A DNA stretch of 62,948 nucleotides, counting the filler, from Basidiobolus ranarum (lineage: Eukaryota), in the NCBI GenBank assembly GCA_040143965.1. It is 50 parts of 50 records of this genome, joined end to end, with 100 filler letters (N's around TTAATTAATTAA, not from the genome) between each part and the next. Parts side by side here need not be neighbours in the genome. Positions count along the whole stretch, not along the records: positions 37,910 to 39,069 come from JASJQH010006193.1; 49 more parts are not named here. One strand, given 5' to 3'. This document shows positions 29,086 to 62,797 of the stretch, in pieces; positions within the stretch are counted from its first letter, which is position 1; each line of letters begins with the position of its first letter. A program made the translations under genes and the position numbers. Below the pieces are notes generated by a model. It searched no databases. It was not told the DNA's origin and saw only the letters and a program-made list of their open reading frames with translations.

Positions 29086-30246
29086 CCCATACTACCAATG
29101 ATTGTAGAACTTTAGCCAACCAAGCAAACAAGTCAAACTCAACATCTGGTAAGCCAAACCAACCAACCAACTACCAAGACAGAAAATCCCTATGCTGATG
29201 ACCGCTGCTTTAAATGAAATCAACTTGCTCATAGAGCACCTGCATGTCCATAGAACAAAGCACCTTTTGCTAAACTCACCCAAGTCTCTGAGGAATCATC
29301 ATGTCATCCAGATTATACTCCTGCAGAAGATTTACAAGTTTTAAAGATGCTTATCAAGAACTCATGGTACAAAACTACAAAAATCTCTTTGACTGCTCAG
29401 CCTAAATTGCCACTGTCAAAGTAAAGAAGCAATCAATCAACCACCTTAATGCTATTGAAGTACCCTTAATACTCAATAGTCACCAATACATAGCACTATT
29501 GGATACTGGATCTATCAACTCTGTTGTCTCACCCACAGTAGTTGAAGAACTCAATTTGGATATAGAAAAGCAACCTGGAAATATTATTCTTGCTGCTAAA
29601 CCTGTTTCTGCCCCAAGAATTGGGGTTACCAACTCTGTCACTATTCAATGTGGAAATTCTCAAATTTCATACCACATGGAAGTTATGAATATCTCTCATG
29701 GACCATTAGTTGTTATTGGTCTTGATATATTCACCCAACTTGGCTTCAATATAGGAGGACTACGAGTCTCTTATTCTGGATTAAGCAAATCTTTACCACC
29801 TGATTCTGATCACAAACCAGAAGTAATCTTGGAAAATCCTGAACAAGAAAAATTATCACCTTCCTTCCAAGCATATGCCAACTCTGTCAAAGTAGCCATT
29901 CAACCTGCTATTGAGAGAAATCAGAAAATCCCAAAGACATTTTCTGCACTATACCACAGTCTCTAGTTATGTTGGAAACACAACCTGGAGAAACAACTTG
30001 GAGAAGACAATATCCAATTCGACATATATTACAACCTTTAGTTGATGAAGTAGTACAGAAATGGGCAAATAATGGCATTATCACTCAAGCACCTATCAAC
30101 TCTCCCTTCAATGGCTATTTGACTTCAGCACCAAAGAAGGATTCCAAAGGAAATCTTATGCCAGAAAAACCTTGTTCAGAACCAAGACCTCTAAACTACT
30201 ACAGCATGTTAAAATTCCTATCCTTAGGAGCAATGACATCTTTTCC
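29086..30246 (+). pseudogene. Ty3/gypsy gag knuckle, aspartic protease and RT start (second lineage)
   Basis: Decayed CCHC near 29205; ALLDTGSINSVV; WRRQYPI...VDEVVQKW...GII. Confidence 0.85.
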
Positions 30247-32868: not shown

Positions 32869-34029
32869 CTACAAAGAAAATTCTTAAACTCTTATATGTC
32901 TGAGGATTCAAGTATTATGACATACATAAATGGTGTCAAGAAACTTGCCCAACAACTGGAATCAGTGAATTATGTGATACCTGAAATAGACATAATTCTT
33001 ACCATAATTAATGGTCTCCCTGAATCATATTCAGCCCCAGTACTCACTTTGAAAGCAATTGGGGATAAGCTTACTCAGCATTATCTGATCACTTATCTAT
33101 GTCAAGAAGAATTTAAAAGGAAAGACAAAAGTCAGCTTGCAGATGAAACAAAAACCACACAAGCATTTTATTCTCAAAATAGCCAATCAGAAAGGAGCAT
33201 TGTGAAATGGTACAGATGTGCAAAGCTGAAACACATAGCACATTATTGCAGATCAAAGAAGAAATGGGTTTCAAAGAAAAAGGAAGCATATAACACCACT
33301 AAAAGAGGAAATGAACACTATGTATTTACAGCAACCTCTAAATCAGGAAATGACTCTGCTGATGTATGGATTCTAGATTCTGGTACAAGTGATCATATGT
33401 GTCACAATAGAAACATAATGCATGACTGTAAGGAAATAGAACTTCTGGACATCACAGTAGCTAGAAGAAACAAACTGGTTGCATATGGAATGGGAAAGGT
33501 CACACTTGCCTTATAAATAAGTAAAACCAAAAGTGTAATGGTAACCTTGGAAGATGACTTATATATTCCATCATTTACAACAAATTTATTTCAATTGGAG
33601 CAATTGAAAAGAAACATTATGATGTCAAATTCAGCCAAGGAAAAGTAGCCATATACAAATCAAAGGACTTGATAGTAGCAACTAGAACAAGAATTGGTAA
33701 TCTATATCACCTGGATATTGCACCAATAACTGAGACTGTTTCTATCTTTGCAACAATTACTTCTGGAAACTTGATGACTTGCCAGCAGTGCTGGGTCATC
33801 TAAACTATAATAGTGTGAAACTATTATATAAAAATAGCCTATGTATTGAAATGGATCTTGAGCCCTCAGATATTACTAAATGTGAAAGCTGTATTCAAGG
33901 AAAAATCACCAGAAAACCATTTCCAAAAGAAGGAGCTAGCAAAGCCAAAGATTTATTGCAACTTATTCATACAGACTTATGTGGCCCAATGCAAACTCTG
34001 ACACCAAGTAAGTGACAATATTTACTCAT
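32869..34029 (+). pseudogene. Copia gag, protease, GAG-pre-integrase and integrase start
   Basis: WILDSGTSDHMC, LGHLN...CESCIQGK, LIHTDLCGPM. Confidence 0.95.
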
Positions 34030-36689: not shown

Positions 36690-37809
36690 TTAAAGGAATG
36701 TGTACCAGTACTATTACCAACATTTTTGCATCCACAGAGAAGTTTGATGGTGAAGACTTTCACCTTTGGAAGTTCAAGATGCAAATGGTGCTAGAAGACA
36801 AGGACCTTTGGGGATTTGTTGCAGGAGAAGAAAAAGAGCCAAAGGGACACCAGAAGCTATCCTTGCCTTTTACAAGAAGCAGAGGAAAGCATTCTCTACA
36901 CTTTGTCTACCTCTCAGAGACTCTAAACTGAGGCACATACAGTCTGCCCAAAACATCCCAAATGCTGGGGAAATGCTTGAGAGATTATATAAGACTTAAA
37001 GTGTGGCTAATAAGTTATATCTTAGGCAAAAATTGTTCTCAATTCAGATGAATCCTGATGATTCTATGCTTAATGATATAAATTGGATAAAAACTATGGC
37101 AGATCAGGTCTCATCCATTGGAGCACCTCTAAATGAAGATGACTTAGTCATGACACTACTTGGGAGACTGCCAGAGAAGTTTGGGAACCTCATAATTGCT
37201 CTAGAATCAAGATTAGAGCCATTAACAATGGAATATGTTGGTGCTAGGCTTTTGAATGAGGAATTAAGGAGATCTAATTCTCAGGAAAAAAATGCAAAAC
37301 AGGCATTTTTTGGAGCTGTAAAACATCCAACAGGCTTCAGTAATGGTGCCCCTAATAGAAAATCAATCATCTGCAAGAATTGCAAGAAACCAGGCCATAT
37401 TATCAAAGATTGTGGAAAAGGATTTTTGCCAAAACCTAGAATTGGAACAAGCAAATCAAGTAAGCACTGATAGGAATCATATATTTGTGTCTACCCCATC
37501 AGTAACCACTAAAGAAGACTCAGAAACATGGTATATTGATTCAGGAGCTTCCCAGCATATGTCGAACAGGATATATTGGTTTTCCAGCTTAAAACCAATC
37601 AAACAAGGAAAGTCAATTTAGACGATGACCATGCACTAGGTGTAGTTGGTAAAGGCTCAGTTGTACTCAATTTGACTAAAATTTAGCTACACCATCTGCA
37701 AAATTGGATGATGTACTCTATGTACCAAATATAGCCAAGAAGCTACTCTCAGTGAGCCAAGCAAAATCTCAAGGACTCAATTTTTTGTTCAGTAAGGCGG
37801 GATGCACTA
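36690..37809 (+). pseudogene. Copia gag and protease (another family)
   Basis: EKFDGEDFHLWKFKMQ, CKNCKKPGHIIKDC knuckle, WYIDSGASQHM. Confidence 0.95.
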
Positions 37810-38346
37810 NNNNNNNNNNNNNNNNNNNNNNNNNNNNNNNNNNNNNNNNNNNNTTAATTAATTAANNNNNNNNNNNNNNNNNNNNNNNNNNNNNNNNNNN
37901 NNNNNNNNNTTAATAGATGTTGACTAATGAGCGCATATCAGTTGAAGAATTAAGAAATAAGGATTTATCTTGAGTGAAAAGATGAGCTTTAATGTCCACT
38001 TTACGAGTGAAAAGATGAGCATACTGTATTCAAAGGAAATACCGCCAAGTGTCAAAGCAGATGATTAAAATTAGTACTATGTTCCCCATAATATCCCACA
38101 ATCCACAATACGAACATTGCATTCAAAAAGCAACACTGATGCAGAAATTTCGATCACCGGAATACTGAAGATTCATTCATTATGCATATGTCTTCAATAT
38201 TTTGTGACAGTGCAATACCAAATAGGAAAACTCGATAAAAGTAAAAGTGGGTTTATTGATCAAAAATTCAATTTATTCGCTACCGTTTTCTATAGGACAA
38301 CTCTGGGTATAGCTAATGGTAAATTCGCTCTAAAAGAATCAGCTGC

Positions 38347-38934
38347 TTAGTATTTGTTATAGTCCTTGTTTCCGCTATGACCACCTCCATATTTCTTGCC
38401 ATGTTCGTCGTAATCATCTCCGCCTCCACCACCGCCGTACTTTTTCCCTCTTCCTCCTCCGTGTTTGTAATCATCTCCATCCCCATCACCATTGCCATCA
38501 TAATCATCGCCACCGCCACCACCACCATATTTTTTTCCTCTTCCTCTACCATTACCATTACCATGGCCATCATATTCATCATCATCATAATCACCGCTGC
38601 CACCTCCATATCTCTTTCCTCCTCCACCGCCATGCTTGTAGTCACCTCCATCACCGTGACCATCATACTCATCATCGTCATAGTCGTCCCCACTACCACT
38701 TCCACCGCCATACTTCTTTCCTCTTCCTCTTCTGTGACCGTCACCATCATATTCATCATCATCGTAATCACCGCCGCCACCACCCCCGTATTTCTTAGTT
38801 CTTCCACTACCACCACCACCGCCGCCGTATTCTACACCCTTATAATTAGGGTCGTAAGAACGTTCGAACACACTGGCATTGATGGCTAGAGCCGTGGAAA
38901 GAACAATCAATAGTTGTGTAGTAGAGTATTTCAT
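38347..38934 (-). CDS. Secreted Gly/Asp/Tyr-rich repeat protein with six K[KR]-YGGG sites (candidate Kex2-processed repeat precursor)
   Basis: Complete 195-aa ORF; signal peptide; TATAAATAG ~40 nt upstream; CpG retained. Confidence 0.9.
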   Translation of the reverse strand: MKYSTTQLLIVLSTALAINASVFERSYDPNYKGVEYGGGGGGSGRTKKYGGGGGGDYDDDEYDGDGHRRGRGKKYGGGSGSGDDYDDDEYDGHGDGGDYKHGGGGGKRYGGGSGDYDDDEYDGHGNGNGRGRGKKYGGGGGGDDYDGNGDGDGDDYKHGGGRGKKYGGGGGGDDYDEHGKKYGGGHSGNKDYNKY

Positions 38935-39169
38935 TATTGTGATAATTTGTTAAGGTACTGAAAATGGTACTCTATTTATACTTCCGCAAGAAATGGTACC
39001 AAAAGATGCCAACAGGTAGATCTCAGCATGGTGAAGCGCTAATAATAGGATTCAAGCTTACCTGCACATNNNNNNNNNNNNNNNNNNNNNNNNNNNNNNN
39101 NNNNNNNNNNNNNTTAATTAATTAANNNNNNNNNNNNNNNNNNNNNNNNNNNNNNNNNNNNNNNNNNNN

Positions 39170-58032: not shown

Positions 58033-59187
58033 AGTAAATGGATATAAAAACAGCCTTTCTGAATGGAAATCTAGAACAAGAGAGCTATATACCGCTACCA
58101 GATGGATTTGTTGACCCAAAACATCCTGATATGGTCTGTAAACAGCAAAAAGTACTATATGGACTCAAGCAAGCATACAGGGCATGGTACAATAAGATAG
58201 ATACCTATTTTGAATCACTAGAATTCAAAAAATGCACAGTAGACCACAGTATTTACATCAAAGCAACTGGAAATAGGCTGCTTATCTTGGCACTATATAT
58301 GGATGACTTCATCATAGCCACAATTGATCTAGAAGAACTTAATCAGACAAAAAGCAGCCTATCGAACCATTTTCAAATGACTGATATGGGTAAATTGAGT
58401 TATTTTCTTGGAGGCCAAAGCAAGAGAGATAAACCTGATCCAAAAATCATACTGAGTCAGTCTATATACATTCTAGACATCCTAACAAGTTTAAACATCA
58501 AGAATTGCAAGCCTGTAACAACACCAATGGATCCCAATGTGAAACTGATTAAAATATCATCCAATTTGGCTCAAAAAAGACACAATTAAAGCCTGGGGTT
58601 CCCTTATCAATCCATGGTGGGTAGTTTAATGTAGACAATGGTTGGAATATAACCAGACATTGCTGTGGTAGTGGGAACTGTCAGCCAATATCTCAATAAT
58701 CCAGGATCTGAGCACAAAACTGCAGTAAATGAATATTCAGGTATTTGAGAGGAACTGTAGATCTAGTTCTAGAAGATGCTGCCACTCCTGATGCACAAAA
58801 TTTTGAAGGCTACAGCAATGCCAACTGGGGAAGAAGTCTTGATGAAGAAGATCAACAACTGAGTACACTTTTCTCAATGGGAATGGAGCCATAACTTGGA
58901 GTAGTAAAAAGCAACCAATGGTAGCAGTTTCCACTACAGAAGCAGAGTATAAGGCTGCCTCTGCTACTACACAAGAGGCTATGTGCTCAAGGAAGTTATT
59001 TACAGACTTTGAATACAGGCAAAAACGCACTATTACTGTATTTGAAGATAATCAAAGTTGTATTTCATTAGCTAAAAACCCTACATTTCATGCTAGAACA
59101 AAACATATAGATATTAGGCATTGTTTTGTTAGAGAAGTAATAGAGAATGATAAAATTGCACTTGTCTATTGCCCAACTGAAGAAATG
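58033..59187 (+). pseudogene. Copia RT and RNase H
   Basis: MDIKTAFLNG, LYGLKQA.RAW, YMDD, STTEAEY, RTKHIDIRH. Confidence 0.95.
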
Positions 59188-59983: not shown

Positions 59984-61795
59984 GGTTATGAGCCCTATGT
60001 TCTAACATTTACAGCATGACAGAAACTACTACTACCACTTTTATTAACTCAAGTATTGAAAATCTTGATGGAGAAAATTACAATTTCTGGAAGTTGAAGA
60101 CGCAAATCATGCTGGAAGAGAGGGAGCTTTGGGATGTAGTCTCTGGAGAAGAAAACAAACCTTTGGACCCTTCCTTATTGGAAGCCTACAAGAAAAGAGA
60201 CAAGAAGGCCTTTAATGTCATTTGTCAAAGTTTGAAGGATTCACAACTTGTGAATATTTGATATGCAGACTTTCCATCAAGCTTGGACTATATTGGAAGA
60301 GTGTTATAAAGCAAAGAGTCTTGCTAATAGACTCTTTCTCAGACAAACCTTCTTCAATATCAAGATGGAAAAGTCTGAAAGCATGGTTACTCATATTGCA
60401 AATGTGAGATCTTTTGCAAACAACTGCAAAATATTGGTGCANNNNNNNNNNNNNNNNNNNNNNNNNNNNNNNNNNNNNNNNNNNNTTAATTAATTAANNN
60501 NNNNNNNNNNNNNNNNNNNNNNNNNNNNNNNNNNNNNNNNNGCTTTTTGCTTGCCTTTACCTTTAGGACTAATTTCAACACTTTGAAAAGTACCAGTTGA
60601 GGTTGGAAAGCTGTGAGTTTTATTTCCTGGTGTTTTGGCTTGGTGAGAGGTGCCAGGTGTTGAATAAACTTCTGAATTTAGTGCTCTTCCAACTGGTGTA
60701 CCCAGTTCCATGATGAAGTTAAGCTTCTTTGCCAGCATTTCTGACTCTGGAATTGCAGATCTCTTGATAGTGTGAAGAATTTGGTTAGTCGGACAGCAGA
60801 GCCTAAGCTCACTGGCTCCTTTGCTATTTCCTTGGGTTCACTAACTTCCTGCTCCTTCAGTACTTCATTAGCTGCTTTTATTTCTTTTCCAAGTCAATCA
60901 TTGTTTACATTTTGGAGATGTTTCATGATTAGGCCTATATTAGCCCAATTGTCATTTGCTTGCAAGAACCCAAGATAAGCCACATGAAATTTATCAAGAA
61001 CCTTCAGAGTAACTCCTGGTTTTTGGTTTTTCCACAATTGACTCAAATCCAGGTGATTTTGGGCAAGATTCCGCACAGTTTCTGAAATGTTAAACCACTC
61101 ATCATCAGTGCAAGTGATGGTAGCTCTGACATTCAGAGTCTTTTAGTTTGCCAGTTTTCCTACGAGATATCTACTTTCATGTGCCGAAGTAATTTCAGGT
61201 TGTTGTGTAGGCTTAATGGTCCAACACATATTCTCCTCTGCTAGATTGTCATGGTGACATTCATACATATGGTGTGAGATTGACTGAAATCCCATATGAG
61301 AATGGATCAAGGGAGCAGCATGTTGCTGTAGCTCCAGTACAGCATTCTGAAGATCTTGTATCATTGTTAAGTGACTCTCTAACTGTTGACTAGTCACTTC
61401 CAAATGCTGCATTTTTTGCAATATTGCAGCATTATTGCATGTCATGGCCTGTGTAGCAACTTCATAGTTTTTACTTATGGTTGCATACAAATCATTACAG
61501 TGTTCTGCTTGCAATTCCCTTATTGTAATAATTATATCCAAATTTTCTACAGAGGGTTGTTCAATAGTGGGCAAAGTAGCCATTTTGGAAGTTGACTGTC
61601 TTGACGGTATTTTGGTTGAACTTTGCTCAACTATGGATTTACTATGTAATTGGGGGATTACAATCTCTTCACTTGCACTATTGCTGTAAAGGAACNNNNN
61701 NNNNNNNNNNNNNNNNNNNNNNNNNNNNNNNNNNNNNNNTTAATTAATTAANNNNNNNNNNNNNNNNNNNNNNNNNNNNNNNNNNNNNNNNNNNN

Positions 61796-62797
61796 CCATT
61801 TTGGTGGGGGGGATTAGTTTGAACTCCAGAAATTAGGCAATTATTGATAATTTTGCTGAAATAATCAAGTACAATATGGCCAAATCTCTTATGCCATAAT
61901 TCAATAGTTTCTTGATTGAAATAACTTATGTTTACACATAAACCTCTTGGATTATATATAAGTTTGTATAAGTTCTGTTCCTTTTCTCCCAAAGCTAAAT
62001 AATTTCTATTTTGATCAGTGATGGTACATCCTGACTTATCAAAATTGAATTTTAGCCTTTCTGAGGTGGCCTTGCATGCAGATATTACATTCTTGGCAAT
62101 ATCTGGAACATGTAGTACATCCTGAAAAGTATACACTCTCTCTTCAAAAGCTCCAGTTAAATTGTCTTGAATTGTTGCTATTCCAATAGCATCCAATGTG
62201 GGGTCATCTTCCACAAAAACCTTTCTAATTGGGATTTCTTCATATTCCATAAACCAATGTTTTTCATTTGTGAAATGTTGATAGGCTCCATAATCAATAT
62301 ATCACATCTGAGAATCCTGTTAATAGTCATATATAGATTAGATATGAACAAGAGATCTTCTATTGTAATCACATATCCAGATTCAGTCCATTTTTCTTCT
62401 TTTGCAAACCTTTTAAAGCAATCTTTGCATAATTGGCCAGTTCTTCTACAGTAATCACAGAATGTGTTACTTTTCTTCCTAAAGTGCTTTTAACCTGTTT
62501 AGGAAGGCTTCCCATAGCTTATTAAAGCATTATCTTCATTCTTTTGGTTGGATCCTGATTTGCACAAATCTTCATCCAGAAGTCTGCCAAATATATAATT
62601 TAAGGTCAAATTTTCAGTTCTTGATTCTGGAGCCATTACTAGGCTCTGAAACTCATGTGACAGGCTATTCAGGACTGTAACAATGATATCTTGATCAGTA
62701 GTAGGTACTCCAATGCATTTCATTTCATCCACTAAAATAGTGACTCTATTAATTAGTGATTTGATGTCCTCTCCTGGCTTCATGTTTAAGTTAAAGA
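61796..62797 (-). pseudogene. Copia gag, protease and GAG-pre-integrase
   Basis: CDYCRRTG...KDC knuckle; DVLHVPDIAKNVIS; LWHKRFGH. Confidence 0.9.

Follow-up and report, generated by a model that had tools for sequence, protein, structure and literature searches.

A 195-codon open reading frame on a short contig of the fungus Basidiobolus ranarum raises the question of what kind of secreted protein, if any, it encodes. An initial annotation had described a precursor laid out like those of animal neuropeptides, with an uncleaved wall or adhesive protein as the alternative. The question has three parts: whether the frame is a gene, which of its features are kept in related proteins, and whether those features fit a precursor that is cut into peptides or a protein that stays whole.

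Gene structure

The window analysed (62,948 bases) strings together 50 contigs in order of length, each of 1153-1167 bp and with a GC content of 31-41%, with linkers of N and TTAATTAATTAA in between. The contigs are unlinked, so apparent neighbours across linkers are meaningless, and the true genomic context of the 195-aa frame is its own 1160-bp contig (37910-39069). On the minus strand of that contig, the frame at 38347-38934 runs uninterrupted from an ATG, with A at -3, through 195 codons to a TAA stop. It was matched in the same frame by B. meristosporus proteins (tblastn, E 1e-32 to 3e-40). GC content was 0.47 in the coding sequence versus 0.34 and 0.37 in the flanks. The following gene features were recorded:

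38347..38934, minus strand: complete single-exon coding sequence, 195 aa plus TAA stop (P0001), frame supported by tblastn
38973..38980, minus strand: TATAAATA (TATA) box, -46 to -39 from the ATG, consensus match only
38252..38277, minus strand: two AATAAA polyadenylation-signal-like hexamers, 70 and 90 nt past the stop, consensus matches only

Other long open frames lie over the same DNA, among them 38323-38886 (plus strand) and 38313-38831 (minus strand, other frame), both encoding low-complexity strings. The strings encoded by the alternative frames are Ile/Thr/Ser-rich or Met/Val/Glu-rich, and these frames, which have no support, were regarded as a side effect of the Gly/Asp/Tyr codon repetition. 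Among the overlapping open frames, homology singles out 38347-38934 (minus strand).

Protein architecture

The 195-aa protein was divided into a signal-peptide-like N-terminus, a family-specific segment and six repeat units:

38875..38934, minus strand: residues 1-20, signal-peptide-like N-terminus (MKYSTTQLLIVLSTALAINA), by hydropathy, kept in all six relatives
38791..38874, minus strand: residues 21-48, family-specific segment ..ERSYDPNYKG.. up to the first KK, by alignment
38713..38790, minus strand: unit 1, residues 49-74 (YGGGGGGDYDDDEYDGDGHRRGRGKK), with an extra internal RR
38611..38712, minus strand: unit 2, residues 75-108, ending in KR, the sole junction with a P1 Arg
38530..38610, minus strand: unit 3, residues 109-135, ending in RGRGKK
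38440..38529, minus strand: unit 4, residues 136-165, ending in RGKK
38392..38439, minus strand: unit 5, residues 166-181, short, ending in HGKK
38350..38391, minus strand: C-terminal unit, residues 182-195 (YGGGHSGNKDYNKY), sharing 50% identity with the other units

The signal peptide reported in the initial annotation was borne out by hydropathy and inspection, its cleavage position being a putative one. It comprises Lys2, a hydrophobic core (L8-I18) with 9-residue Kyte-Doolittle means up to 2.7, and then a small-residue A-I-N-A stretch. Six K[KR] sites follow at residues 47, 73, 107, 134, 164 and 180 (five KK and one KR). YGGG stands directly after every one of them, and Gly precedes five while Thr precedes the sixth, all as first described; a seventh dibasic inside unit 1 (RR68-69) had been missed. 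When the mature part was shuffled 200,000 times with its composition preserved, K[KR]YGGG never occurred six times, the maximum being two. Gly before at least five of the six sites had P = 0.035 given a Gly content of 38.5%, and on its own is weak evidence.

In-silico cutting at the K[KR] sites yielded units of 24, 32, 25, 28, 14 and 14 aa, and units 1-5 shared 60-86% pairwise identity. The acidic context of the Tyr residues and the basic RG/HG tails were likewise as first described: DYDDDEYDG occurs in three units and DDYDG or DDYDE in two others. The mature part is made up largely of Gly (38.5%), Asp (17.8%), Tyr (12.1%), Lys (9.2%) and Arg (5.2%), with 25 Lys and Arg residues against 37 Asp and Glu. 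Basic blocks hold three to five basic residues in five of the six units and two in the last (HGKK), and R-x-K-K is read at four of the six K[KR] sites. Opposite charges are segregated along the chain (kappa about 0.44 versus 0.17 shuffled, z = 7.8), and none of 5000 shuffles scored as high.

At the DNA level, Tandem Repeats Finder returned short, weak arrays only, and the six KK/KR-Y-G-G-G junctions use differing synonymous codons for K, Y and G. The repeat units are not recent DNA copies; the synonymous codon variety at the junctions indicates that the motif is maintained at the protein level.

The protein is represented in the ESM Atlas by an entry identical to it letter for letter. The Atlas model had a pLDDT of 0.45 and a pTM of 0.22, and the protein is predicted to be intrinsically disordered. 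Structure matches from the Atlas were rejected, the model being of low confidence, and the best feature match (a 'Wd40 repeat' cluster, 0.80) lay in the chance range and was uninformative.

Relatives in Basidiobolus

A word-index protein search found five relatives (E 2e-18 to 1e-5), all of them hypothetical proteins of B. meristosporus CBS 931.73. A six-sequence profile run against 1.84 billion representative proteins gave four matches, all from the same strain, and added the 66-aa mini member P0007, bringing the relatives to six hypothetical proteins in total (P0002-P0007). No relative outside Basidiobolus was found among those 1.84 billion representatives. A metagenome scan with the family alignment gave 81 pattern matches, none confirmed by tblastn, and a word-index search with residues 1-42 alone, a region too short for so sparse an index, gave one candidate, none scored. 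The B. ranarum protein itself was absent from the 15-billion-protein collection, and tblastn with P0001-P0006 found no paralogue elsewhere in the window (matches outside 38350-38934 all had E of at least 1.1). As far as the databases searched allow, the family appears to be confined to Basidiobolus.

Identity between the B. ranarum protein and its relatives was 42-49% in full-length tblastn alignments and 67-72% in the MAFFT alignment. The latter contained 63 invariant columns, including M1-K2-Y3-S4, the hydrophobic core, and E24, R25, S26, Y27, D28, P29, Y31, K32 and G33. The family signature, an MKYS..INA.V.ERSYDP.YKG N-terminus followed by DYD..YDG.G.G-basic units, was found in the B. ranarum protein and places it in a Basidiobolus Gly/Tyr/Asp repeat family (P0002-P0007) whose members range from 66 to 195 aa.

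P0003 and P0005 lie on one 20,205-bp contig and P0002 and P0007 on one 195,544-bp contig; these shared contigs indicate that the family is multi-copy and probably tandemly arrayed. In the P0002 and P0003 models, a signal-peptide-like segment and a ..SYDPDYKG.. motif each occur a second time, and each model looks like a fusion, made in annotation, of two tandem family genes. The downstream copy in these models and the 66-aa P0007 are mini members with one basic site each.

These comparisons bear on the possibility that the frame is not a gene and fell open by chance within low-complexity DNA. Three further frames over the same DNA are open for 149-188 codons, as is usual in such sequence, and a Pfam search with the 195-aa protein at E up to 10 returned no family, both of which would suit a chance frame. 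It is hardly credible against a non-repetitive N-terminus shared with six annotated B. meristosporus proteins, a K[KR]YGGG pattern matched by no shuffle, the TATA box, start context and AATAAA signals, and varied codons. A chance origin is essentially refuted by the homology, and the 195-aa frame is a real, intact gene.

Conserved and variable features

The initial annotation had named loss of the dibasic sites in orthologues as a result that would count against it. After the signal peptide, the six B. meristosporus relatives contain 23 basic clusters of the forms RRKK, RRR(R), RKK and RR; the relatives are close paralogues, and the following counts are not independent:

Residue before the cluster: Gly in 21, Thr in 2
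Residue after the cluster: Tyr in 15, His in 6, Phe in 1 (a probable model fusion point), Met in 1
Clusters containing [KR]R, a canonical Kex2 dipeptide: 15
Clusters with YGGG directly after: 3

The sites were thus found to be kept, with Gly before 21 of the 23 and Tyr or His after 21 of the 23. All 23 stand between acidic Tyr blocks, and eight are RKK, which lacks [KR]R.

Set beside its relatives, the B. ranarum member reveals which features of the family are kept and which are free. Kept are the motif at the N-terminus, the DYD..YD acidic Tyr block, the G-x-G-x-G tail, and the Gly-preceded basic cluster, which is followed by an aromatic residue or His. Free are Lys versus Arg, the length of the Gly runs, YGGG itself, and the size of the basic cluster, which comprises two to four adjacent residues, or RGRGKK in the B. 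ranarum protein. Unit length is 7-15 residues in B. meristosporus versus 14-32 in the B. ranarum protein. Family members begin with a signal peptide, continue with an invariant ERSYDPxYKG segment, and then consist of units made of Tyr or His, a Gly run, an acidic Tyr block (DYDDDEYD), a Gly/His/Asn/Arg tail and a basic cluster.

Comparison with Kex2-processed repeat proteins

The protein had been compared with the fungal Kex2-processed repeat proteins (KEPs), and it does show the operational KEP pattern (Umemura 2020; Le Marquer 2019): an N-terminal ER signal peptide, by hydropathy and inspection, and at least three repeats of at least 8 aa, none exceeding 100 aa. The survey of Umemura (2020; PMC7329392) applied this pattern, with repeats set between KR, KK, RK or RR, to 1461 fungal assemblies. 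In the sections of that survey drawn on here, B. meristosporus CBS 931.73 is the most KEP-rich strain of the 1461, with 43 KEPs. Seven of the 43 form type S-3 (#158), restricted to Basidiobolus and placed both among the high-Tyr types, often with D in the vicinity, and among the multiple-Asp types. The B. meristosporus family is very probably type S-3, a match made by text description and not by accessions. It was therefore very probably catalogued as KEPs already in 2020, so that the KEP reading, though reasonable, is not new and the high novelty assumed at the outset falls away. The likeness of KEPs to neuropeptides was also in print (Vogt 2022; PMC9769878). Our literature search found no experimental study of any B. 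meristosporus KEP, and Tabima 2020 (PMC7466969) makes no mention of RiPP, Kex2, tyrosinase or adhesive.

What the B. ranarum protein shares with the S-3 type, as described in that survey, is a signal peptide with at least three similar short units between KR, KK, RK or RR, the genus, Tyr with neighbouring Asp, multiple Asp residues, multiple copies within one genome, and no reported DUF3328 neighbour. It differs from the B. meristosporus family in being longer, in having KK sites instead of RRKK or RRR, and in the Gly runs that follow each site. By its sequence, the B. ranarum protein adds a divergent new member to a family restricted to Basidiobolus.

A good residue at P4 partly compensates for Lys at P1 in cleavage by Kex2. 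A P1 Arg, the mark of a canonical Kex2 site, is lacking at five of the six junctions of the B. ranarum protein and is found only at the KR107-108 junction and at the internal RR68-69. The text of PMC8528282 used here describes P1 of Kex2 substrates as 'almost exclusively an Arg', and a title in its reference list concerns the interplay of the Kex2 S1 and S4 subsites. Survey pipelines count KK as a processing site, for which Kex2 enzymology gives no support, and the family offers a test of KK as a processing site in early-diverging fungi. For peptidomics, it also gives a defined target in a fungus that inhabits vertebrate guts as a commensal and occasionally infects humans.

Cut precursor or structural protein

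The best explanation, to which we give an even chance of being right, is that the protein is a precursor cut into acidic Tyr/Gly/His peptides, and hence a candidate KEP. The protein would enter the secretory pathway and be cleaved on the C-terminal side of its basic clusters by a kexin-type protease, or alternatively by a yapsin-type protease specific for basic residues. A Kex1-type carboxypeptidase would then trim the basic residues, freeing about six acidic peptides of 14-32 residues, Tyr-initiated and mostly Gly-ended. The peptides may act by bulk chemistry, through binding of cations or metals or through association with the wall, the matrix, or gut or soil microbes. This mode of action is suggested by unit and Gly-run lengths that vary while composition and charge blocks are kept. 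It is unlikely that the peptides are length-exact receptor ligands, and neither amidation nor tyrosine sulfation is expected.

Several features argue for cleavage. A chain predicted to be disordered and exposed, carrying RR, KR or RRKK clusters ([KR]R is present in 15 of the relatives' 23 clusters), would be a kexin substrate on its passage through the fungal Golgi. Conservation of the basic clusters is strict, and they lie sharply adjacent. Family members are small, as is typical of peptide precursors, and the 66-aa member has a single site. The KEP class, which the family fits, includes several proven precursors. Among the experimentally processed KEPs, the yeast alpha-factor precursor and Ustilago maydis Rep1 resemble the 195-aa protein in architecture and in the proposed Kex2/Kex1 route, as outlined in the portions of PMC7329392 and PMC9769878 drawn on here. 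They differ from it in having KR sites with a P1 Arg and near-identical cores, where the B. ranarum protein has KK at five of six sites and length-variable cores, and there is no sequence similarity.

The points against cleavage begin with the sites themselves, since KK predominates in the B. ranarum protein and RKK occurs in the relatives. The interchange of Lys and Arg, and basic blocks larger than a protease would need, look like conservation of charge. The predicted peptides differ in length by indels and are not near-identical, unlike those of pheromone-type KEPs. The strongly blocky charges can be explained equally well by an uncleaved polyampholyte.

The structural alternative named in the initial annotation therefore remains a live rival, one that we regard as plausible without expecting it to be correct. 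It holds that the protein is an uncleaved, secreted block polyampholyte of 'sticker-and-spacer' type in a wall, spore coat or adhesive, in which Gly spacers set apart acidic Tyr blocks and basic blocks that would drive self-association or coacervation. The richness of the mature part in Gly, Asp, Tyr and Lys, the charge segregation and the predicted disorder all suit such a material, as do basic blocks of more than two residues, the free interchange of Lys and Arg and the lack of a P1 Arg at five of the six sites. Gly-run lengths vary at constant composition, and variation of unit length by Gly indels suggests a sticker-and-spacer material over defined ligands. Possible destinations include the glue of the capilliconidial beak and the thick zygospore wall, perhaps hardened by Tyr or Lys cross-links. 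Such destinations exist in the Basidiobolaceae, whose capilliconidia bear adhesive material at the beak and whose zygospore wall is thick and bilayered, going by the part of PMC13370150 used here; the gene is placed there by conjecture. The same account has to accommodate the exposed kexin sites described above and the very small size of the members (66-195 aa), with few repeats, and the protein showed neither Cys nor a GPI signal or wall-anchoring motif.

Cement and structural proteins rich in Gly, Tyr and Lys include those of the mussel foot, sandcastle-worm cement, the schistosome eggshell and the Gly-rich walls of plants. The 195-aa protein resembles them in composition and in being secreted and disordered, with Tyr beside Lys and oppositely charged blocks. 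It has no homology to them, and its strongly acidic DYDDDEYD blocks and small size would be unusual there. A more specific form of the structural account is a protein invented in Basidiobolus, charge-blocked, Gly/Tyr-rich and self-coacervating, that would serve, whole or in large fragments, to glue the capilliconidial beak as a wet adhesive or to cement the spore wall through Tyr cross-links. We consider this a long shot. If true, the protein would have converged, in a fungus, on the glues of marine invertebrates, and its 'dibasic sites' would be cationic stickers and not cleavage sites.

The cleaved and structural readings are not fully exclusive, as the example of Rep1 shows: it is a KEP whose products, in the account given in PMC7329392, are structural wall peptides and not signals.

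Animal hormones and cyclic peptides

Whether cut peptides might imitate animal hormones was the more far-reaching suggestion of the initial annotation, which saw an amidation signal in Gly-dibasic, sulfation sites in the acidic Tyr residues and an opioid analogy in the YGG starts. In this reading the protein would be a host-directed mimic of opioid or sulfakinin/CCK-like neuropeptides, released at dibasic sites, Gly-amidated and Tyr-sulfated. The formal layout is indeed that of proenkephalin and of sulfakinin/CCK precursors, with a signal peptide, G-K-K/R junctions, YGG starts and Tyr in acidic context, and Basidiobolus is described as an inhabitant of vertebrate guts. The likeness ends at the layout: there is no homology, and the opioid motif YGGF is absent at all six junctions. 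YGGG itself is free in the family, following directly on only three of the 23 clusters of the relatives, and Gly before the sites is near compositional expectation in the B. ranarum protein (P = 0.035).

The required enzymes add to these difficulties. PAM and TPST act inside the secretory pathway of the producing cell, so a host would be unable to modify a secreted fungal peptide, and the suggestion of host modification does not stand. For fungal modification, PAM (amidation) is reported missing throughout fungi, and fungi have no reported TPST gene or sulfated proteins according to the passage of PMC6272617 consulted, which leaves neither amidation nor sulfation a basis. The reading as a neuropeptide mimic is largely refuted and in our estimate very improbable, the likeness to animal hormones being superficial.

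Tyr-containing repeats between dibasic sites behind a signal peptide also recall the precursors of dikaritin or ustiloxin-type RiPPs, in which Kex2 excises Tyr cores that DUF3328 (UstYa) oxidases then cyclise. Cross-links in ustiloxin-type peptides form through Tyr (PMC7329392). Against this origin, Table 2 of the same survey records a DUF3328 gene within 15 genes of none of the seven type S-3 Basidiobolus KEPs. The 'dikaritin' class is described there for Dikarya, and typical ustiloxin-type repeats are given as 13, 14 and 8 aa, whereas the cores of the B. ranarum protein are 14-32 aa, Gly-rich and variable. A cyclised RiPP is accordingly most unlikely.

Other elements of the window

Ten other long ORFs of the window were compared with Pfam: five were copia-type and five had no family. 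The copia-type LTR retrotransposon fragments lie at 37000-37467 (plus strand), 32869-33513 (plus strand), 58038-58586 (plus strand), 61795-62301 (minus strand) and 29406-29963 (plus strand). Their Pfam domains are Retrotran_gag_2, zf-CCHC, Pol_BBD, RVT_2, gag_pre-integrs and a retroviral-type aspartyl protease. On the contig of the 195-aa gene, a 16-nt direct repeat, GAGTGAAAAGATGAGC, occurs at 37972-37987 and 38005-38020, with starts 33 nt apart; it lies in the gene's 3' flank, some 330-375 nt beyond the stop.
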